Assembly: GCF_003334815.1 (NCBI RefSeq)
Contig: NZ_QOWO01000072.1
Length of the DNA stretch: 5,879 bases
DNA from: Escherichia coli
Lineage (GTDB): Bacteria; Pseudomonadota; Gammaproteobacteria; Enterobacterales; Enterobacteriaceae
Strand: one strand, 5' to 3'
Position numbers and translations under genes: made by a program. Every line of letters starts with the position of its first letter. The first letter of the stretch is position 1. Below the pieces are notes generated by a model. The model did no database searches, had not been told where the DNA came from, and worked only from the letters and a program-made list of their open reading frames with translations. Positions 1-5,879 of this stretch are shown here, in pieces.

Positions 1-40
1 TTCGTACTAATCGCTTCAATCCAAAGAACTTCACTTTTCC

Positions 41-77
41 TTAGCGTGTGTTATCGCAGAAATGCCCACGGAACCCC
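41..77. repeat. Left copy of an imperfect 37-bp inverted repeat (partner at 5803-5839)
   Basis: Hand alignment: reverse complement of 41-77 matches plus 5803-5839 at 34/37 positions. The repeat contains the last 8 codons and TAA stop (51-53) of the 51..248 ORF. Confidence 0.7.
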
Positions 78-248
78 GGTTTGGCGTTTCCCTGCCAATA
101 TTTGATAGCCAACCCAGAGGATATAAACGCTAATACCTGCACTTAGAAGAGATAACATATCTTGGCCTAATTGACTTTGAAGTGGTTTGGTCATCTCTTC
201 GATTTTACTAACAACTTCGCTATTAAACTTTTCAAAGAAACCAGACAT
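51..248 (-). CDS. 65-aa membrane ORF resembling the N-terminal segment of VirB6/TrbL-family proteins (possibly a truncated gene)
   Basis: ATG at 248 preceded by AGGTGA, 4 nt after the stop of the upstream lipoprotein gene. MSGFF... then one hydrophobic helix (LSLLSAGISVYILWVGYQIL) followed by AGKR, the usual start of VirB6-type proteins, but it stops at TAA 51-53 where canonical proteins continue for about 250 aa. Confidence 0.4.
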   Translation of the reverse strand: MSGFFEKFNSEVVSKIEEMTKPLQSQLGQDMLSLLSAGISVYILWVGYQILAGKRQTGVPWAFLR

Positions 249-252
249 GTTA

Positions 253-516
253 TCACCTGTTCAATCCATGTTGCTTATCATATTCAGCTGACTCAGCCTT
301 AAGTATTTCAAGCATAGGCCCATAGGTTCTACCAATAATTCCGGCAACTTTTTTAACATTTTGACAATTAACAGAGTCTTCCCCTGACTTTTTACACTCC
401 TTATATTTCTCCGTTGCTTCTTTGGGATGATTTAGCCACCAATCTGATGATTTTGTATCTTCACCACATGCGGAAAGAATAAAAATAGATATCAAGAGTG
501 TACAAATTTTTTTCAT
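253..516 (-). CDS. Small secreted lipoprotein (87 aa); position immediately upstream of a VirB6/TrbL-like ORF suggests a TrbK/entry-exclusion-like role
   Basis: N-terminal signal peptide MKKICTLLISIFILSAC with lipobox L-S-A-C; GAGGA Shine-Dalgarno 7 nt upstream of the ATG at 516; stop TGA at 253-255. Confidence 0.6.
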   Translation of the reverse strand: MKKICTLLISIFILSACGEDTKSSDWWLNHPKEATEKYKECKKSGEDSVNCQNVKKVAGIIGRTYGPMLEILKAESAEYDKQHGLNR

Positions 517-536
517 CTTTGATTCCTCGTATGGAC

Positions 537-578
537 ATTACAATTGCTGATGCAATCAGCAATTGTAATTTTTGTCAA
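537..578 (-). promoter_or_regulatory. Perfect palindrome (15-bp arms, 3-bp spacer) plus adjacent minus-strand TTGACA; candidate operator/promoter for the lipoprotein operon
   Basis: ATTACAATTGCTGAT-gca-ATCAGCAATTGTAAT at 537-569, 21 nt upstream of the ATG at 516. Minus-strand hexamer TTGACA at 578..573 immediately upstream. No clean -10 hexamer identified. Confidence 0.4.
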
Positions 579-617
579 CTAAAAAAAACACCTATTGCAT
601 TATGCTATTTTTTGCAA

Positions 618-902
618 TTAATCCGCTTCAAATCCAAAACGAATCTCTTTTATGTTCAAAAGCAATCTCAATAAGATCATCGGTCTTAACGATGAAGCTG
701 AAGCACAACTTAATTTAGCTCTTGCATTAAATAACTGCCCCTGAACTGTTCCCGGTGTTGTATTTCTAAAATAAGCTATTTCATCAATAGTAAATCCTAT
801 GCTGTATAAAATGGTCACGCTCTTTTCCGCATCGATTAATCCTTCATCGTCGTAAAAGATTTGATGAAGTTGAGAAATGCGTATAGCATCATGCTTAGTC
901 AT
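618..902 (-). CDS. Small helix-turn-helix DNA-binding protein (sigma-70 region-4 / KorA-like HTH)
   Basis: 94-aa ORF; AGAGG Shine-Dalgarno 6 nt upstream of the ATG at 902. Segment FTIDEIAYFRNTTPGTVQGQLFNARAKL fits the T-x-G-T-V HTH pattern. Lies 76 nt downstream of repA on the same strand. Confidence 0.5.
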   Translation of the reverse strand: MTKHDAIRISQLHQIFYDDEGLIDAEKSVTILYSIGFTIDEIAYFRNTTPGTVQGQLFNARAKLSCASASSLRPMILLRLLLNIKEIRFGFEAD

Positions 903-978
903 AATAACCTCTAGCCAGGTTGTTGTGATTAGCGGTTTGTCAGAGTTGCAACCTCTGGCAAATCGCGCCGATTAAATA

Positions 979-1728
979 TCAATTTTTTATAATCTTTGAT
1001 TGCTCATCTTTTTGAAACCAGAATTCAAGACGAACGACTTTTTTGCCTCTTTTTAATGGCTTCCACTGGATTATCCAATTATCTTTTTCGGTCAACTCTT
1101 TTACGGCAGGTTCTATCACCCTTTCTCTGAGTAATCCAAAGGTTTTTTTATAACTTTCAGGAGATTCCATTGCGTGATGAAAATCATCCAGCGATATAGA
1201 TAACCATCCGTTATTGTCTTTGTGGGTATTCATTTGCTCGAATAATTCAAGCAACCGCCATGAGTGAACAGAGCGCAGTCCGCAAGCCTGAGATAGCTGG
1301 TATTTAGTGAAATTTTCTTCCAGTTCGCATAGATAGGGGGTGACCTGTGGTGTGAAGCTCAAAACAACGTGCGCTTCACCTTCATTGTATTTATAAGCAC
1401 CTAACCATCTGATTTTCCAGACATCAACATCTGTTTCGCTTACTTCGTTTATTCTGAAGCTAATGTAGCGGTTAAAAAAATTGTCAGCAGCGATTTTTAA
1501 TTGTGAATACGCTTGTTTTAAAGGCATTCCAAATGTATTGGCGTATTCTTCAGCCGTGATTTTAATCGGGGTGTACTGTCCGCCCATTTTGGCTATTGCA
1601 GCAAAAATGATGCGTTTTTCAGCCAGTGACAGGCTTTGCGCTGCTCTCGTAATGGCATTGCTCATCACGATATTTTTCCCGCGCAGGTTCAAGGTCATGG
1701 TAATGGATTCAGTTTTTTTCCCTTTCAT
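979..1728 (-). CDS. repA: Rep_3-family iteron-binding replication initiator RepA
   Basis: Architecture matches pSC101/R6K-type initiators as remembered: NAITRAAQSLSLAEKRIIFAAIA (winged-helix 1), WKIRWLGAYKY...PYLCEL, SISLDDFHHAM...LEFWF. Preferred start is ATG 1728 (MKGKK, preceded by AGGCGGAGAG); the track ORF extends to 1782 and internal ATGs at 1698 and 1665 are alternatives. Stop TGA 979-981. Cognate iterons lie 130 bp upstream. Confidence 0.85.
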   Translation of the reverse strand: MKGKKTESITMTLNLRGKNIVMSNAITRAAQSLSLAEKRIIFAAIAKMGGQYTPIKITAEEYANTFGMPLKQAYSQLKIAADNFFNRYISFRINEVSETDVDVWKIRWLGAYKYNEGEAHVVLSFTPQVTPYLCELEENFTKYQLSQACGLRSVHSWRLLELFEQMNTHKDNNGWLSISLDDFHHAMESPESYKKTFGLLRERVIEPAVKELTEKDNWIIQWKPLKRGKKVVRLEFWFQKDEQSKIIKN

Positions 1729-1761
1729 CTCTCCGCCTAAATAGGTCAACTGGCACTTGGA

Positions 1762-1845
1762 AAAGTAACAGGTATCGGGCAACTGTAACGAAGATAAACG
1801 ATGTTATCGCACAAGTAAAGTAACATTGCTTGTTGCTGTTACTTT
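1762..1845 (-). promoter_or_regulatory. repA promoter/operator region with inverted iteron half-sites (candidate autoregulatory operator)
   Basis: Iteron core GTTACTTT occurs as AAAGTAAC at 1762-1769 and 1817-1824 and as GTTACTTT at 1838-1845. The pair 1817-1824 / 1838-1845 forms an inverted repeat with 13-bp spacer between the iterons and the repA start. Confidence 0.45.
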
Positions 1846-1849
1846 TGCC

Positions 1850-1858
1850 TGTGGATAT
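1850..1858. promoter_or_regulatory. DnaA box-like site (8/9 match)
   Basis: TGTGGATAT, reverse complement ATATCCACA versus consensus TTATCCACA; directly abuts the iteron array. Confidence 0.35.
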
Positions 1859-1860
1859 TG

Positions 1861-1944
1861 CCCGAAAAAAGTTACTTTTAACCCGAAAAAAGTTACTTTT
1901 AACCCGAAAAAAGTTACTTTTAACCCGAAAAAAGTTACTTTTAA
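1861..1944. repeat. Four tandem perfect 21-bp iterons (CCCGAAAAAAGTTACTTTTAA)
   Basis: Unit starts at 1861, 1882, 1903 and 1924; all four copies identical, contiguous, no spacers; located upstream of a Rep_3 initiator gene. Confidence 0.9.
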
Positions 1945-2040
1945 CGCTGTAACTTGATGATTCAAAAGAATTTCTAGCGACTAAAAAGGTTTTAAAAAAA
2001 AAGATAAAAAGGATTTAAAAAGGAATTTACCCCCAAAATC
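1945..2040. other. AT-rich, A-tract-phased region of the origin (candidate DNA unwinding/bending element)
   Basis: Strongly AT-rich by inspection; AAAAAGG recurs at 1983-1989, 2006-2012 and 2017-2023; flanked by iterons on one side and a perfect DnaA box on the other. Confidence 0.4.
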
Positions 2041-2049
2041 TGTGGATAA
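2041..2049. promoter_or_regulatory. DnaA box (perfect 9-mer)
   Basis: TGTGGATAA is the reverse complement of TTATCCACA; sits at the edge of the AT-rich origin region. Confidence 0.5.
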
Positions 2050-2156
2050 CTCTGCTTAAACCAAGAGGACAGATCACGTTACGTTAAGACAACAAACCTA
2101 ATAAACGACGCGCTCATTTTTTAACCGCTACGCGTAAGTGCTCAAATCAATACCTG

Positions 2157-2222
2157 CTCTCTTCCGCTTCCTCGCCCACTCGCTCACTAACGTTCGGTCG
2201 CTGGGGCTGCGGCGAGCGGTGC
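2157..2222. other. Segment resembling the ColE1/pBR322 primosome assembly (n'-type pas/ssi) region
   Basis: CTCTTCCGCTTCCTCGCCCACTCGCTCACTAACGTTCGGTCGCTGGGGCTGCGGCGAGCGGT is recognisably similar, from memory, to the pBR322 stretch CTCTTCCGCTTCCTCGCTCACTGACTCGCTGCGCTCGGTCGTTCGGCTGCGGCGAGCGGT. Lies about 110 bp from the oriV DnaA box in a GC-rich ORF-poor island. Confidence 0.3.
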
Positions 2223-2589
2223 CACCTCCCGCATGTTGTCGGTTATTCCGTTGCTGTACTGTTCGGAAATTCGTTCTGTGAGCCATCCAGAACACCAGAA
2301 CTCGATTTTCTGGTCCCGGTAATGGTATCCCACGTCTTAGCCCTTAAAACGCGCTCAGAAACTCTCTGAGGCGCTAAAATGCCAACAGATGCCCGTCAGG
2401 GCATGGAAGGTGCGAAAAACGCTTACAGAGGGTTTCAGGAGGCCAAGCGCGCCGATACCCCTAACCAGGGGCTTTCAGGTCGCTAAGAACCGCGTCAGCC
2501 CCCTGCAAAGCAAAAATTGCACGAAACAGGCAGCCACTCGGTTGGCAGGTGGTCGTAGACCGTCGATGTTGCAGCGATGATTGTATTAA

Positions 2590-2934
2590 TCATCTAATGC
2601 TATGGTTGGTGACTTCTTTTTCCAGAGCCTTATTAACAAAAGCATTCAACGATAAATCTTCTTCCATCGCCATTTCTGCTACCCGACGATGCAGTTCTGG
2701 ATCAAGCCTGACGTTAAACACGCCTTTAAACGGGATATCAGGTTCCTTTCCATCCTCCACACAAGACTGTAAATACAGATCAACCGATGTTTTAAACTCC
2801 TGTTCCAGTTCAGCTAATGTAGAAGCCTCATAAGTTACCAGGTCCCGAATAAACGCCAGTTTTCCATACAGGACATTATTTTCAAAATCGGGTTCAACTG
2901 TACCTAAATATCCTTTATATTTTAAATGTTTCAT
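2590..2934 (-). CDS. hicB: HicB-family antitoxin (N-terminal HicB fold plus C-terminal ribbon-helix-helix DNA-binding domain)
   Basis: 114 aa; C-terminal FNVRLDPELHRRVAEMAMEEDLSLNAFVNKALEKEV is a typical RHH segment of HicB antitoxins. Start ATG 2934 overlaps the hicA stop (ATGA at 2931-2934); stop TGA 2590-2592. Confidence 0.8.
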   Translation of the reverse strand: MKHLKYKGYLGTVEPDFENNVLYGKLAFIRDLVTYEASTLAELEQEFKTSVDLYLQSCVEDGKEPDIPFKGVFNVRLDPELHRRVAEMAMEEDLSLNAFVNKALEKEVTNHSIR

Positions 2935-3179
2935 AATAATCCGGCCTCTTTCAGATTCTGTTTAATCGCTTTCAGCGTACCACCTTTAATATAACTTTCC
3001 GGATGTGGGCGATGCATTAATATGGTGTGGTTGATATCAGCATTGAAAAACCGCACTCTTGACCCCTGCATTTCTTTTTTGACATATCCCAAAGAGGAAA
3101 ACAAAACGACCAGTTCATCCCATTCAAACGTTTTTTTGCTGTTTAAAAACTTCGCCAGTAGTTTATCTGTTTTTCCCAT
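2931..3179 (-). CDS. hicA: HicA-family toxin (mRNA interferase)
   Basis: 82 aa; GSRVRFFNADINHTILMHRPHPESYIKGGTLKAIKQNLKEAGLL resembles the E. coli HicA core (GSNH...PRHP...LRKAILKQLGL, remembered). GGGGAG Shine-Dalgarno 3 nt upstream of the ATG at 3179; toxin-first order typical of hicAB. Confidence 0.75.
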   Translation of the reverse strand: MGKTDKLLAKFLNSKKTFEWDELVVLFSSLGYVKKEMQGSRVRFFNADINHTILMHRPHPESYIKGGTLKAIKQNLKEAGLL

Positions 3180-3193
3180 ACGCTCCCCTTGTT

Positions 3194-3229
3194 TGTAACT
3201 AATTATAGTTACAGTGTTGTTTTTGTCAA
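3194..3229 (-). promoter_or_regulatory. Consensus sigma70 promoter for hicAB with overlapping palindromic operator
   Basis: Minus strand: -35 TTGACA (3229..3224), 16-bp spacer, -10 TATAAT (3207..3202), about 23 nt upstream of the hicA ATG. Palindrome TGTAACT-aattat-AGTTACA (3194-3213) overlaps the -10. Confidence 0.55.
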
Positions 3230-3320
3230 ACGTGCCCTCAATGGAACATTTGAGCAGAAACTAAAGCTTGGAGACTCCCAAAATTAGAGAGGAATTACTT
3301 AAAGGCTGCAAAGAACCAAT

Positions 3321-3368
3321 GCAGGATAGACAATCCGATGTCAAATGGTACCATTCGATATCGGATTG
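3321..3368 (-). other. Candidate oriT: near-perfect 38-bp palindrome followed on the minus strand by a TATCCTG|C nick-like motif
   Basis: CAATCCGAT-gtca-AATGGTACCATT-cgat-ATCGGATTG at 3331-3368. On the minus strand the motif TATCCTGC (3328..3321) follows 2 nt after the repeat and fits the MOB_P-type nick consensus YATCCTG|Y. Lies in the divergent intergenic region next to a MobC-like gene. Confidence 0.35.
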
Positions 3369-3419
3369 TCCAAAAACAGGGTTTTTGCCTGTGCCTGCCG
3401 CAGGCTCTATGGAGTGAAG

Positions 3420-3923
3420 ATGAAACAGATAAAATTCAGACTTAGTGGTGATGAGTTAAAACTTGCAGAACATAACGCGATTTCAAGTGGATTTTCCAGT
3501 ATCAATACATTTGCCAGACATAATGTGCTTAACATTGAAACTAAGCCTGTTAATATCCCAGTTAATAATGAACCAGCAAAGCTGGTATCAGTGCGCCTTT
3601 ACCCTCATGAAATAGAACTTGTTAAACGTAATGCTGCCCTTCACGGCATGAGCATGAGCAGAGAAATTGCTATTCGTGTGCGTCAGTCTTTGTTAAAGAA
3701 TGAAGTCTGTCTTTACCCTGATGAAGTTAAGGAACTTAAAAAACTATCAACTGCTGTAGATCGTGTTGGTCGCAACATTCATTTTATCATAAAAGGTGAA
3801 AGATTCTGCACGGTTAACGATCCAGATTTCAGAAAAGACGTTATTGAAGTGATTGAACTGTGTAAGCAAATTGATTCAAAACTTGAAACGTTAACCAAGA
3901 GTGTTGTTAACAGATTTGGTTAA
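3420..3923 (+). CDS. MobC-like relaxosome accessory protein (tandem ribbon-helix-helix segments)
   Basis: 167 aa from ATG 3420, with GGAG 7 nt upstream; the track ORF start at 3345 lies inside the palindrome and is rejected. Two RHH-like segments (IKFRLSGDELKLAEHNAISSGF; KLVSVRLYPHEIELVKRNAALHGMSMSREIAIRV) and C-terminal LKKLSTAVDRVGRNIHFIIKG resembling the MobC L..L...R.G.N motif. Stop TAA 3921-3923. Confidence 0.45.
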   Translation: MKQIKFRLSGDELKLAEHNAISSGFSSINTFARHNVLNIETKPVNIPVNNEPAKLVSVRLYPHEIELVKRNAALHGMSMSREIAIRVRQSLLKNEVCLYPDEVKELKKLSTAVDRVGRNIHFIIKGERFCTVNDPDFRKDVIEVIELCKQIDSKLETLTKSVVNRFG

Positions 3924-3929
3924 AATCAA

Positions 3930-3948
3930 GGCCATCAAATAGATGGCC
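3930..3948 (-). terminator. Hairpin between convergent genes; likely intrinsic terminator for the minus-strand VirB5-like operon
   Basis: GGCCATC-aaata-GATGGCC (7-bp stem, 5-nt loop). On the minus strand it is followed by TTGATTTTA (U-rich); on the plus strand the downstream tract is not U-rich. Confidence 0.4.
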
Positions 3949-3955
3949 CTAGCTG

Positions 3956-4258
3956 TTATCTCATCGTAAATCGCATTACGATTAATAACAGAAGTAAAAT
4001 ACAAAACAGCTTCAACGTAAAAAGGAGTCTTTCTTTTATACCACCGCTGGGAACAAACCTCTTTTCAATTCTATCAGTGATAAATTGCAATGTGCCATAA
4101 TACATAAAAGCATTAACCAGCTTTAACGTAAGCTCCATACTTAAAACAATAACTATTATTGGTAGAGATATTAACAGTGGCGGCGGTGTAGAACCGGTAC
4201 TATTCAATCTAGACCAATGATTATCTACCCATTCTTTTAGCTTATTTAGCTTTATCAT
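3956..4258 (-). CDS. Small integral membrane protein (100 aa, two hydrophobic helices); entry-exclusion-like by position after the VirB5-like gene
   Basis: ATG at 4258 lies 1 nt after the VirB5-like stop (TGAtATG); the track ORF's longer N-terminus overlaps the upstream gene. Hydrophobic stretches PLLISLPIIVIVLSMELTL and LLFTLKLFCILLLLLIVMRF. No family recognised. Confidence 0.45.
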   Translation of the reverse strand: MIKLNKLKEWVDNHWSRLNSTGSTPPPLLISLPIIVIVLSMELTLKLVNAFMYYGTLQFITDRIEKRFVPSGGIKERLLFTLKLFCILLLLLIVMRFTMR

Positions 4259-4259
4259 A

Positions 4260-4973
4260 TCATTCGAAACTCGGTATTTTGGCATTTTTCTGACGTAAAC
4301 GATACTCTGCATACTTTTGTTCTTTCAACATTTCCGCATCAGCCCTGTTTTTACTATCCCATACATCATACTGCATTTTAATTGCCTGTATTTTTAACGA
4401 CTGAGCCTGTAATGCGTTAGCTAAATCCTGGGATTCCTTCATATCCTTTGAAGACTCAATTCGGCTACTTAAACTCTGAATCTGAGACATTGCACTTGAT
4501 AGCTGCTTATTTATCTCATTTCCCTGTTCAATGCTGGCGGCCGTTGAAACTATTCTGGCCTTACAAAGGTTATCAGAACTTTCAATGCCTGTATTACACA
4601 TATCAAACGCTCCATACTTACTGAACAGATTTTTAGCCTGGCTGCTTAATGCACCTTCGGGATTACTGGTAAAATCAGAAATATAACTGTTCCCCTGCTT
4701 ATAAATGTTTGCCAACTCTGATTGCAGGTTACTTAGTTCATTTGTGAATGCCGCAATATTCCTTATACCTGTTGCCGTGGCTAACTGGTCTTTATATGCC
4801 TGAATCTGACTTTGATAATGCCGCGCTGTTTCAGACCATTGTTTGAGTCGTTCTGTCCATCTTGTGGCTTCAATGGCCCATTCCGGACTGGCATCAATAG
4901 CAACCGGAATACCTGCGACAGAACCAAATGAAAATAAGCACAAAAGTACTGAAAAAATTAGTTTTTTGTTCAT
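4260..4973 (-). CDS. VirB5/TrbJ-family type IV secretion minor pilus protein
   Basis: 237 aa; signal peptide MNKKLIFSVLLCLFSFGSVAG, then GIPVAID and a Gln-rich coiled-coil stretch (QSQIQAYKDQLATATGIR) as in VirB5/TrbJ proteins. Strong GAGGAG Shine-Dalgarno; start overlaps the upstream gene's stop (ATGA at 4970-4973). Confidence 0.7.
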   Translation of the reverse strand: MNKKLIFSVLLCLFSFGSVAGIPVAIDASPEWAIEATRWTERLKQWSETARHYQSQIQAYKDQLATATGIRNIAAFTNELSNLQSELANIYKQGNSYISDFTSNPEGALSSQAKNLFSKYGAFDMCNTGIESSDNLCKARIVSTAASIEQGNEINKQLSSAMSQIQSLSSRIESSKDMKESQDLANALQAQSLKIQAIKMQYDVWDSKNRADAEMLKEQKYAEYRLRQKNAKIPSFE

Positions 4974-5710
4974 GCTGAACTCCTCGCACGTGCTTTTTCC
5001 AGGGATGCTCGTCTTCTTGCTTCCATTCCCAATGCGCCTGTTGAAGCCCGTTTCTGCTCCACTTTTTCACCTGCCCATTCGGCGGCTGTTTGCGTTCCCC
5101 GTTTCATTTGGTTTCTCGTTTTCTCTACGGCCATCCCAGCAGCCCCAATCCCTAAAAGAGCCATTCCCTGAAGAGTACCTTCGACACCTGCACCAGCAAG
5201 CTGCTGCGCGAAACTCGATGATTTCCAGACAAAGACAGCAATCAGAACTCCAATTACAAATGCCATTGCGCCCATTGTTAAAATATTTGTTGAGTTAGCA
5301 TCTCTCGATATCTGACTAAGCATATCAGTTTGAAACTCAGTACCAATTTTGACGAGAACTCCTGCAAAAATAACAGTAAATACACTAGAAAATAATATAC
5401 CAAGCCAGTTATTAAACATTACTCTGGTGAATCCAAACATATGACAACCGATAAATATCGGAGCTACAAGAATAGCTAACTGCATTGTTACATCGGCAAG
5501 CATGTAAATAACAGCCGCTACAGACATAATCAGGATGCTTCCTCCCCAAACCAACATTGAACCGATCCCACCCTCAACTGACACATATTTGGATTGATCC
5601 ATAGCATAAACTTTGTCTGCCAAAAGCTGAGTTGTACTCCACATGGTATCTAGCGTTGCCCATACAGGTTTACCAAGGAACCCATCCTTCATAGATTTAA
5701 TAGCATCCAT
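4970..5710 (-). CDS. VirB6/TrbL-family polytopic inner-membrane protein, lacking the canonical N-terminal segment (possibly N-terminally truncated)
   Basis: 246 aa with 4-5 hydrophobic helices and a charged C-terminal tail. APIFIGCHMFGFTRVMFNNWLGILF matches the conserved VirB6 P-x-F-I...TR..F..W block (remembered from Brucella/Agrobacterium VirB6). The frame is open upstream to TGA 5861-5863 with no ATG/GTG/TTG before ATG 5710, and the ribosome-binding site is weak. Confidence 0.7.
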   Translation of the reverse strand: MDAIKSMKDGFLGKPVWATLDTMWSTTQLLADKVYAMDQSKYVSVEGGIGSMLVWGGSILIMSVAAVIYMLADVTMQLAILVAPIFIGCHMFGFTRVMFNNWLGILFSSVFTVIFAGVLVKIGTEFQTDMLSQISRDANSTNILTMGAMAFVIGVLIAVFVWKSSSFAQQLAGAGVEGTLQGMALLGIGAAGMAVEKTRNQMKRGTQTAAEWAGEKVEQKRASTGALGMEARRRASLEKARARSSA

Positions 5711-5802
5711 TGCTGCCGTCAGATAGCCATCAGCATTGCTTACGAATGTTAAAATAATGGCAAATTTTGATAGGTCCCAAACGAGATCTTGTAATGGGGT
5801 TT

Positions 5803-5839
5803 GGGGCTCCGTGGGAATTTCTGCGATAACACCCGCTAA
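5803..5839. repeat. Right copy of the imperfect 37-bp inverted repeat (partner at 41-77); an inverted, degenerate copy of the 3' end of the 51..248 ORF
   Basis: Plus 5758-5829 translates to WQILIGPKRDLVMGFGAPWEFLR-stop, versus YQILAGKRQTGVPWAFLR-stop at the C-terminus of the 51..248 ORF (encoded on the opposite strand). Nucleotide identity is 34/37 in the core. Confidence 0.7.
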
Positions 5840-5849
5840 GCGATTTCTC

Positions 5850-5879
5850 CCTGACGGAAATCACTTGTTTTCCGTCAGG
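5850..5879. repeat. Perfect hairpin/inverted repeat at the right window edge (11-bp stem, 8-nt loop)
   Basis: CCTGACGGAAA-tcacttgt-TTTCCGTCAGG; the stem contains the in-frame TGA (5861-5863) that closes the upstream extension of the VirB6-like reading frame. Downstream context is beyond the window. Confidence 0.5.

Follow-up and report, generated by a model that had tools for sequence, protein, structure and literature searches.

The 5,879-nt stretch of Escherichia coli DNA analysed here (the window) very probably records the insertion of a 3,788-bp Tn3-family transposon into the virB6-like gene of a 5.72-kb plasmid, seen through a contig break at k=77. The event is of a kind already known, namely an ordinary Tn3-family insertion viewed via an assembly break. 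Coordinates of the relevant features are listed in Table 1.

Table 1. Features of the window related to the insertion
Feature	Position	Strand	Basis
Complete plasmid backbone, plus second copy of the target duplication	78..5802		Matches to LR792480.1 and NZ_CP122591.1
Outermost 77 nt of the tnpA end of the transposon; contig stops	1..77	-	77/77 identical to NZ_CP062882.1 1469-1545
Last 13 tnpA codons and TAG stop (RTNRFNPKNFTFP*)	3..44	+	Equals the C-terminus of NZ_CP062882.1 TnpA
38-bp terminal inverted repeat, tnpA-proximal end, outer tip at 77	40..77	-	Minus strand reads GGGGTTCCGTGGGCATTTCTGCGATAACACACGCTAAG
Truncated 5' part of the virB6/trbL-like gene	51..248	-	Comparison with the intact 332-aa protein
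First GGTTT of the target-site duplication, as read on the plus strand (gene strand: AAACC)	78..82		Single in empty sites
3' part of the virB6/trbL-like gene, residues 57-332, without start codon	4970..5802	-	In-frame translation
Target-site duplication, copy 2, GGTTT	5798..5802		Abuts the repeat tip directly
38-bp terminal inverted repeat, resolvase/res-proximal end, outer tip at 5803	5803..5840	+	Reads GGGGCTCCGTGGGAATTTCTGCGATAACACCCGCTAAG
Outermost 77 nt of the res/tnpR end of the transposon; contig stops	5803..5879	+	75-77/77 to known copies
30-bp dyad CCTGACGGAAATCA ct TGTTTTCCGTCAGG, inside the transposon	5850..5879		Inverted-repeat search

Terminal inverted repeats

In a self-alignment of the window, 40-77 agrees with the reverse complement of 5803-5840 at 35 of 38 positions. 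The preliminary description, made from the sequence alone, had reported 34 of 37 positions (41-77 against 5803-5839), which is correct, the true arm being one base longer. About 5e-11 such pairs would be expected by chance in 5,879 nt, and the best scores in five mononucleotide shuffles reached only 25-28 of 38. The weaker similarity with indels that had been followed out to about 80 bp was not significant. The flanks outside the arms scored 8-9 in local alignment, whereas shuffled flanks gave mean scores of 6.0-8.7 and 12-47% of the shuffles matched the observed 8-9. The residual similarity corresponds to an AT-rich near-palindrome, CAAATWTTG, in virB6, and the resemblance beyond the arms is due to chance.

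Both arms are 38 bp long, GGGGTTCCG...CGCTAAG and GGGGCTCCG...CGCTAAG, and have the form of Tn3-type terminal repeats. A GGGG outer tip together with a TAAG inner motif is the consensus of the Tn3 family, as seen in the repeats of Tn3, Tn1000 and Tn21. The first arm equals the initial 38 nt of the transposon copy in NZ_CP062882.1, and the second agrees with the opposite terminus of that copy (ending at 5256) and of copies L004 and L006. The earlier view that the repeats are recombination or mobile-element sites, and not a decaying gene duplicate, is thus borne out: they are transposon termini. No Rfam family was detected in the window at gathering thresholds, and the two repeat sequences are absent from the main text of the 2026 TIME paper (PMC13367494).

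The transposon

The element is 3,788 bp long in NZ_CP062882.1 (1469-5256), contains tnpA and a putative serine resolvase gene, and is present in many enterobacterial plasmids. Its genes are annotated as "Tn3 family transposase", a generic PGAP label, and "recombinase family protein"; the first 77 nt of the window have 100% matches under the former annotation in many plasmids. With 916.9 bits, the 988-aa TnpA is well above the cut-off of 500 for NCBIfam NF033527 (Tn3 family transposase), which identifies the product of the full copy as a Tn3-type transposase; large DDE transposases of this type have about 1,000 aa. In tblastn it was only 36-39% identical to TnAs1, TnAs3 and ISPa38, the lineages for which NCBI has names. 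The tnpA stop codon lies inside one terminal repeat. Identity of the element with ISYps3 was considered and rejected, ISYps3 being described as 7.3 kb with 34-bp repeats, in contrast to 3,788 bp with 38-bp repeats here.

It had been suspected that the enzyme is encoded outside the window, and both tnpA and the putative resolvase gene are indeed carried by full-length copies of the transposon. The statement that the window itself lacks a recombinase or transposase is accurate with respect to complete genes, but the C-terminal 13 residues of the 988-aa TnpA, with their stop codon, are encoded unchanged at its left end. At the other end, the outermost 77 nt matched at 75 of 77 positions to the NZ_CP062882.1 copy, at 76 of 77 to copy L006 and at all 77 to a contig of GCA_965212685.1. 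Beyond position 77, the full-length copy reads GTGGCCTGTATCG... at its tnpA end and TCCTGCAGTTGAAG... at its res end.

The protein encoded next to tnpA has 207 aa and is of the serine-recombinase type, its hits to NCBIfam serine recombinase models being partial and sub-threshold. Between its gene and the terminal repeat lies a stretch of about 145 nt with repeated TGWCGGAA motifs and dyads. In the full copy, TGWCGGAA / GTACGGAA recurs three more times between the 30-bp dyad of the window and the start of tnpR. This dyad may be a resolvase-binding res subsite and is a candidate for crossover subsite I.

Other copies of the transposon are flanked by 5-bp duplications of their own, such as AAAAA in a colicin gene (NZ_CP062882.1) and TATCT in trbL (copy L012). 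In strain Res13-Lact-PEA12-26 the element occurs on the chromosome as well as on several plasmids, so that carriage in multiple copies is normal.

Target plasmid and interrupted gene

The segment between the arms matched LR792480.1 (5,718 bp) at 100% over the whole length of that record and NZ_CP122591.1 (5,720 bp) at 98.7%, and both matches wrap around the record. In each of these plasmids the empty site, ...GTAATGGGGTTTGGCGTTT..., is uninterrupted and has a single GGTTT. The window has GGTTT twice, one copy against each repeat tip, i.e. a 5-bp target duplication relative to the empty site. Subtracting one copy from the 5,725 nt between the arms leaves 5,720. The segment is thus the entire backbone of a circular plasmid of 5,720 bp, and it is the target of the insertion rather than the element. 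It had been proposed that the arms might be terminal repeats of a larger element; they are indeed element termini, but the element lies outside the 5.7-kb segment. The backbone is that of a Rep3/iteron plasmid with hicAB, a nikA/ddp1-like mob gene, eexN, and virB5- and virB6-like genes. Its replicon, hicAB, mob module and T4SS genes belong to the target plasmid and are not transposon cargo.

Comparison with related plasmids for an intact virB6, which the preliminary description had recommended, was successful: LR792480.1 and NZ_CP122591.1 each contain an intact gene for a 332-aa VirB6/TrbL-like protein. The 65-aa ORF at 51..248 consists of 57 native codons (248..78) followed by eight codons (GVPWAFLR) and TAA contributed by the terminal repeat (77..51), in agreement with the earlier reading that the arm carries the last eight codons and the stop of this ORF. 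Over its first 57 residues the product agrees completely with the intact NZ_CP122591.1 protein, and the divergence begins exactly at the repeat tip. On the far side of the insertion, the translation of the 3' part, TPLQDLVWDLSKF..., follows the intact protein from residue 57/58 on, and its longest ATG-initiated remnant is the ORF at 4970..5710. The equivalent gene in the GCA_965212685.1 contig has Pfam TrbL on record. The gene is therefore split, as had been described, with its N- and C-terminal parts separated by the insertion. Both parts have the same orientation, and deleting the insertion together with one GGTTT joins them exactly. The insertion inactivates the virB6-like gene, of which the 65-aa ORF is a stub.

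Contig ends and sister assemblies

Each end of the window holds exactly 77 nt of the transposon. The window has the appearance of a short-read de Bruijn contig with k=77 that stopped inside a repeated element, the type of assembler and the value of k being deduced from the sequence itself. The repeats lie at the contig edges and point outward because the assembly broke inside the transposon of a circular plasmid. That they bracket nearly the whole window is thus literally true, but this is a product of the contig break point and not of the molecule. In the circular form the transposon lies between the two arms, and both are directed away from the 5.7-kb segment.

The same junctions, with an identical backbone, recur in several independent samples, and all recovered contigs with this junction share one orientation. 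The GCA_965212685.1 contig (5,979 bp, or 5725 + 254) has no mismatch over the 5,725-nt backbone and extends through the same junctions into 121 nt of full-length transposon sequence at the tnpA end and 133 nt at the other end. This division into 121 + 133, and not 127 + 127, counts against the contig-break account. GCA_002190105.1 has 699 nt of the transposon after the identical junction, including an ORF with DDE_Tnp_Tn3 (PF01526), and three Logan contigs (k=31) end exactly 30 nt into the transposon.

Since the window ends at transposon position 77, we infer the full-length interior in this isolate from the sister assemblies and the k-mer coincidence; the isolate probably carries the full-length element, and in multiple copies. 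A 400-nt query across the junction of backbone and transposon had no match in PLSDB or in complete E. coli genomes. The expected molecule of about 9,513 bp (5720 + 5 + 3788) is thus so far unseen as a closed molecule, since no finished record in these collections has the junction.

Mechanism and alternative explanations

Tn3-family elements are known to move by a paste-and-copy mechanism through a cointegrate and its resolution (PMC13367494). By analogy with this established behaviour, TnpA would act on both 38-bp terminal inverted repeats and cut the target with a 5-bp stagger at GGTTT, which falls within virB6 codons 56-58. The replicative route would join the plasmid to the donor replicon as a cointegrate, which the resolvase would then resolve at res, leaving one transposon copy in the small plasmid with a 5-bp duplication and another in the donor. 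With more than one transposon copy per cell, the assembler would fail to cross the element, and the contig would end k bases into each terminus.

An unresolved cointegrate or integrated form would present an identical local picture, with the backbone between opposite element ends and the 5-bp duplication at their inner edges (mechanism in PMC13367494), and a k=77 contig is unable to separate it from a simple insertion. We nevertheless regard it as unlikely: the transposon has an intact gene for a putative serine resolvase and a res-like region next to it, such systems resolve cointegrates efficiently, and recurrence of the junctions in independent samples is more in line with a plasmid that is resolved and stable than with a short-lived intermediate. 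Hardly credible, on the other hand, is the inversion model that had been suggested, which takes the arms as crossover sites for site-specific recombination, or as scars left by an earlier event, and has the 5.7-kb segment flip and virB6 split in the process. The arms are mutually inverted and located at the window edges, and inversion by resolvases is possible where two res sites have opposite orientations (PMC13367494). However, they are transposase-binding terminal repeats of the Tn3 family (GGGG...CTAAG, with the tnpA stop inside one of them) and not res or inversion sites, and only one res end is within the window. The two parts of virB6 are co-linear and share a strand, removal of the insertion restores the gene perfectly, and the duplication of 5 bp is direct. 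An inversion would not leave this pattern, which points to a simple insertion; the comparison with the empty site already refutes the inversion model.

A closed circle with a 154-nt Tn3-derived MITE was also considered. Here the window would be a complete 5,879-bp circle and its ends, once joined (77 + 77), a MITE or TIME mobilised in trans by full-length copies. The arithmetic closes (5720 + 5 + 154 = 5879), deletion derivatives of this transposon lineage do exist (one of 394 bp, consisting of transposon positions 1-213 and 3603-3788, and a related one of 295 bp), and the TIMEs IS101, MITESen1 and TIME244 have been documented in Enterobacteriaceae (PMC13367494). The hypothesis was dropped on the 77 + 77 halves, the lack of copies elsewhere and the longer sister contigs. 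Both retained ends measure exactly 77 nt, which is a standard assembler k, and a record cut exactly at the joint has a chance of 1 in 5,879. In other assemblies an insertion that agrees in site, orientation and backbone contains more of the transposon (121/133 nt and 699 nt). The joined 154-nt sequence had no contiguous copy in PLSDB (72,556 plasmids) or in 5,426 complete E. coli genomes, whereas a TIME or MITE is a short contiguous element (50-500 bp) without tnpA that occurs as such at one or more sites. A miniature of this kind is very improbable, as is its more specific form, a derivative that has kept both terminal repeats and a single res dyad and either inserted into virB6 or collapsed there in situ. 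If it did exist, it would add to the enterobacterial TIMEs one not described before, which the full-length transposon mobilises in trans. In the joined form, the sequence across the joint would pass from ...GTACGAA directly into CCTGACGG...

Relation to known elements

The inserted element resembles compact cryptic Tn3-family transposons composed only of tnpA, tnpR and res, such as Tn5403, in its 38-bp GGGG...CTAAG repeats. Further likeness to the family is found in the tnpA stop within a repeat, a DDE-type TnpA, a small upstream gene of the serine-recombinase type beside a candidate res region, and 5-bp duplications. Tn5403 is described as free of resistance genes and is reported to have inserted into traB (PMC5142620), a situation similar to the present insertion into a plasmid transfer gene. 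The window ends, if joined, would give a TIME-like element of 154 nt with Tn3-type repeats and a 5-bp duplication; the difference from TIMEs is that the evidence here favours a full-length element cut by assembly. With regard to repeat-induced breaks of de Bruijn contigs, the window shows the same behaviour, ending exactly k (77) bases into a presumably multi-copy element, and nothing material is different.

The case represents one more Tn3-family insertion, here disabling the virB6/trbL-like gene of a small cryptic plasmid; it may be of minor interest for tracking such plasmids and raises no new question. It also offers a caution for genome scans: where a contig ends in a repeated transposon, the terminal repeats can mimic brackets around the whole sequence, and an ORF reading through into a terminal repeat can feign an inverted gene fragment. 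The supposed inverted copy of the last codons of the 51..248 ORF near the right end of the window is such a case, being the second terminal repeat read in a frame that is open by chance.

Terminal repeats of a Tn3-family transposon

The inverted repeat near the two ends of the window was recovered by a repeat search with 38-nt arms at 40-77 and 5803-5840 (92% complementary), and direct comparison gave 35/38 complementary positions. In a sequence of 5,879 nt, chance would give about 5e-11 pairs as good as this one, and the best 38-nt inverted matches in shuffled windows (n=5) reached 25-28. These figures bear out the 34/37 match between 41-77 and 5803-5839 reported in the preliminary description, with an arm longer by one base. 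The weaker, indel-containing similarity said to extend outward to about 80 bp was not upheld: local alignment just outside the arms scored 8-9 (shuffle means 6.0-8.7), a score that 12-47% of shuffles matched or exceeded, and the "WQIL / YQIL" likeness there arises from an AT-rich near-palindrome, CAAATWTTG. The arms have a GGGG...CTAAG layout, which, from Tn3, Tn1000 and Tn21, we take to be the hallmark 38-bp terminal repeat of the Tn3 family.

If the window ends are joined, the extra sequence amounts to 154 nt and its halves match different things. Bases 1-77 are 100% identical to one terminus of a "Tn3 family transposase" element found in a great many plasmids, those of E. coli and Salmonella among them, and bases 77-154 match the opposite terminus of the same element at 98.7%. 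A complete copy in NZ_CP062882.1, located within a colicin gene and flanked by an AAAAA duplication, contains tnpA (988 aa) and a recombinase gene (207 aa), followed by about 145 non-coding nt and the second repeat; its TnpA passes the NCBIfam model NF033527 (Tn3 family transposase) with 916.9 bits, the cut-off being 500. The tnpA end of this copy was identical to window 1..77 at 77/77 positions and the other end to 5803..5879 at 75/77. On the plus strand, 3..44 encodes RTNRFNPKNFTFP-stop, the exact TnpA C-terminus, with its stop codon within the repeat. The transposon already has an annotation and is widespread, with 63 PLSDB records containing 80% or more of its length; it is also commonly multi-copy, a single strain having copies on the chromosome and several plasmids.

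No published name was matched among Tn5403 and ISYps3 (by their descriptions) and the TnAs1, TnAs3 and ISPa38 lineages. Tn5403, compared by description only, is a cryptic Tn3-family transposon with 5-bp duplications and insertion into transfer genes (PMC5142620). The description of ISYps3 gives 7.3 kb and 34-bp repeats (PMC3297565), against 3,788 bp and 38-bp repeats here, and TnpA identity to the other three lineages is just 36-39%.

Insertion into the virB6-like gene

With the window as a megablast query against 72,556 plasmids, 78..5804 aligned at 100% to LR792480.1 (Salmonella, 5,718 bp) in its entirety, and NZ_CP122591.1 (E. coli, 5,720 bp, circular) was matched over its whole length at 98.7%; both matches wrap around the record. 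The uninterrupted site ...GTAATGGGGTTTGGCGTTT... is present in both plasmids. In the window GGTTT occurs twice (78-82 and 5798-5802), each copy directly abutting an arm tip; without the outer sequence and with GGTTT counted once, exactly 5,720 bp remain. In NZ_CP122591.1 the insertion point lies within an intact gene for a 332-aa "type IV secretion system protein" (VirB6/TrbL-like). The 65-aa ORF (51..248, minus) shares 57 identical residues with this protein and then reads GVPWAFLR-stop from the arm; the remainder, from residue 57/58, is encoded in frame at 5802..4970, also on the minus strand. Thus, the doubled GGTTT, the uninterrupted site in both plasmids and the co-linear, in-frame halves show that a simple insertion, which duplicated 5 bp of the target, interrupted virB6. 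The split itself had been recognized correctly in the preliminary description, but the inversion models offered there are refuted: the two gene halves share a strand, and the duplication is direct.

In the 46-kb conjugative plasmid NZ_CP062878.1, the 5' end of a trbL gene contains an identical transposon copy with a TATCT duplication. Genes of the VirB6/TrbL type have thus been hit twice independently, which may reflect a target preference or sampling. The strain has further copies on its chromosome and other plasmids.

Position of the repeats at the contig ends

Each window end holds exactly 77 nt of transposon sequence, the cut falling exactly where the halves would meet. A standard de Bruijn k is 77, and a contig entering a repeated element stops k bases in. 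A search for exact matches to the 65-aa stub protein revealed the same junction in other assemblies. The sister contig in GCA_965212685.1 (5,979 bp; 0 mismatches across the 5,725-nt backbone) carries 121 + 133 nt of transposon sequence (254 = 2 x 127) that continues as in the full-length element; in GCA_002190105.1 the junction leads into 699 nt of transposon sequence that include a DDE_Tnp_Tn3 ORF, and three Logan contigs (k = 31) end exactly 30 nt into the transposon. A contiguous 154-nt copy was found neither in PLSDB nor in 5,426 complete E. coli genomes. Taken together with the multi-copy habit, these observations indicate that the window is the target plasmid linearised from inside the transposon: the repeats face outward, and an interior of ~3.6 kb, unplaceable by the assembler, would lie beyond them. 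It is a known kind of event, viewed through an assembly break. The exact insertion was not found in finished records (PLSDB, complete E. coli genomes). The sister contig is split asymmetrically, 121/133 nt instead of 127 + 127, which may reflect the assembler's repeat handling or a post-processing step.

The arithmetic (5720 + 5 + 154) would also fit a closed circle of 5,879 bp carrying a miniature element of 154 nt, and Tn3-derived TIMEs are documented in Enterobacteriaceae (PMC13367494). However, the 77-nt ends cut at the joint, the continuation of the junction into the transposon in both longer contigs and the absence of a contiguous copy from the searched collections make this reading very improbable. 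An unresolved cointegrate, which would give an identical contig and from sequence alone looks like a simple insertion, is unlikely: the putative resolvase gene of the transposon is intact, and several samples share the junction.

Proposed mechanism and candidate res region

Tn3-family transposition follows a paste-and-copy route (summarized in PMC13367494). For the simple insertion described here, TnpA would act on the two 38-bp ends and join them to a 5-bp staggered target cut, replication would form a cointegrate of donor and small plasmid, and the resolvase would recombine the two res sites to leave a single copy per replicon. The expected product would be a ~9.5-kb plasmid with virB6 inactivated. 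We infer this order of steps, together with the full interior and the multi-copy state in this isolate.

The res-like region contains a 30-bp dyad, CCTGACGGAAA...TTTCCGTCAGG, a half-site-like TGTCGGAA and a second dyad, TGTACGGAAAC...GTTTGTCGTACA, adjoining the tnpR start. In sequence, this arrangement resembles a three-subsite res with a putative TGWCGGAA-type binding motif, in which the dyad most distant from tnpR would be the candidate crossover subsite.

Coordinates of features in the window and in related records
Feature	Record	Position	Strand
EexN-family gene	window	253-516	
Palindrome upstream of eexN	window	537-569	
Segment shared with 35-kb plasmids	window	855-3230	
Rep3-family initiator gene	window	979-1782	minus
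Inverted half-copies of 21-bp repeat	window	1761-1782, 1836-1853	
Tandem 21-bp repeats	window	1861-1944	
GC-rich stretch	window	2150-2240	
Palindrome upstream of nikA/ddp1-like gene	window	3329-3370	
VirB5-like gene	window	4260-4973	
VirB6/TrbL-like gene	window	4970-5802 + 78-248	
30-bp dyad; whole res-like non-coding stretch, resolvase gene to terminal repeat	window; NZ_CP062882.1	5850-5879; 5073-5218	
Complete transposon (3,788 bp)	NZ_CP062882.1	1469-5256	
Transposon copy in trbL	L012 (locus from NZ_CP062878.1)	1501-5288	
394-bp derivative	L004 (locus from NZ_CP075654.1)	2501-2894	
295-bp element	L005 (locus from NZ_JBXRYY010000004.1)	2501-2795	
Contig ends	L007 (sister contig, GCA_965212685.1)	1-133, 5859-5979	

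Miniature relatives and other plasmid features

A genuine 394-bp internal-deletion derivative (transposon positions 1-213 + 3603-3788) was detected in NZ_CP075654.1, NC_011754.1 (E. coli ED1a) and four further plasmids. The two terminal repeats and the entire res-like region are retained, one tip is mutated (GGCG for GGGG), and no 5-bp duplication is obvious; the derivative has the look of either a TIME-like element not yet described or a dead remnant. A 295-bp element, present in NZ_JBXRYY010000004.1, CP056941.1 and further E. coli plasmids from sheep and humans, combines closely related 38-bp ends with an unrelated interior; its final 73 nt share 96% identity with the transposon's res end. 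In NZ_JBXRYY010000004.1 it lacks a flanking duplication. It may represent a second miniature element mobilised by this transposase.

The backbone carries only three T4SS genes, for an EexN-family entry-exclusion lipoprotein, a VirB5-like (Pfam T4SS) and a VirB6/TrbL-like protein, and no other mating-pair-formation genes. A ~93% identical trio is present on widespread 4,237-bp RepL plasmids of E. coli, Shigella and Klebsiella. No RNA family was found in the window with Rfam. Four perfect tandem 21-bp direct repeats, CCCGAAAAAAGTTACTTTTAA, adjoin the Rep3-family gene, accompanied by related inverted half-copies, and form with it a typical iteron origin. The GC-rich stretch, CTCTTCCGCTTCCTCGCCCACTCGCTCAC...GGCTGCGGCGAGCGGT, resembles the conserved segment beside the ColE1/pMB1 origin. 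Two intergenic palindromes were noted: one, whose 21-nt arms abut and match at 90%, lies just upstream of the nikA/ddp1-like gene and is a possible oriT or operator, and one with perfect 15-nt arms, ATTACAATTGCTGAT/ATCAGCAATTGTAAT, may be an operator. The segment shared with 35-kb plasmids annotated with the relaxase genes taxC and taxA matches them at 94%, which suggests modular exchange.
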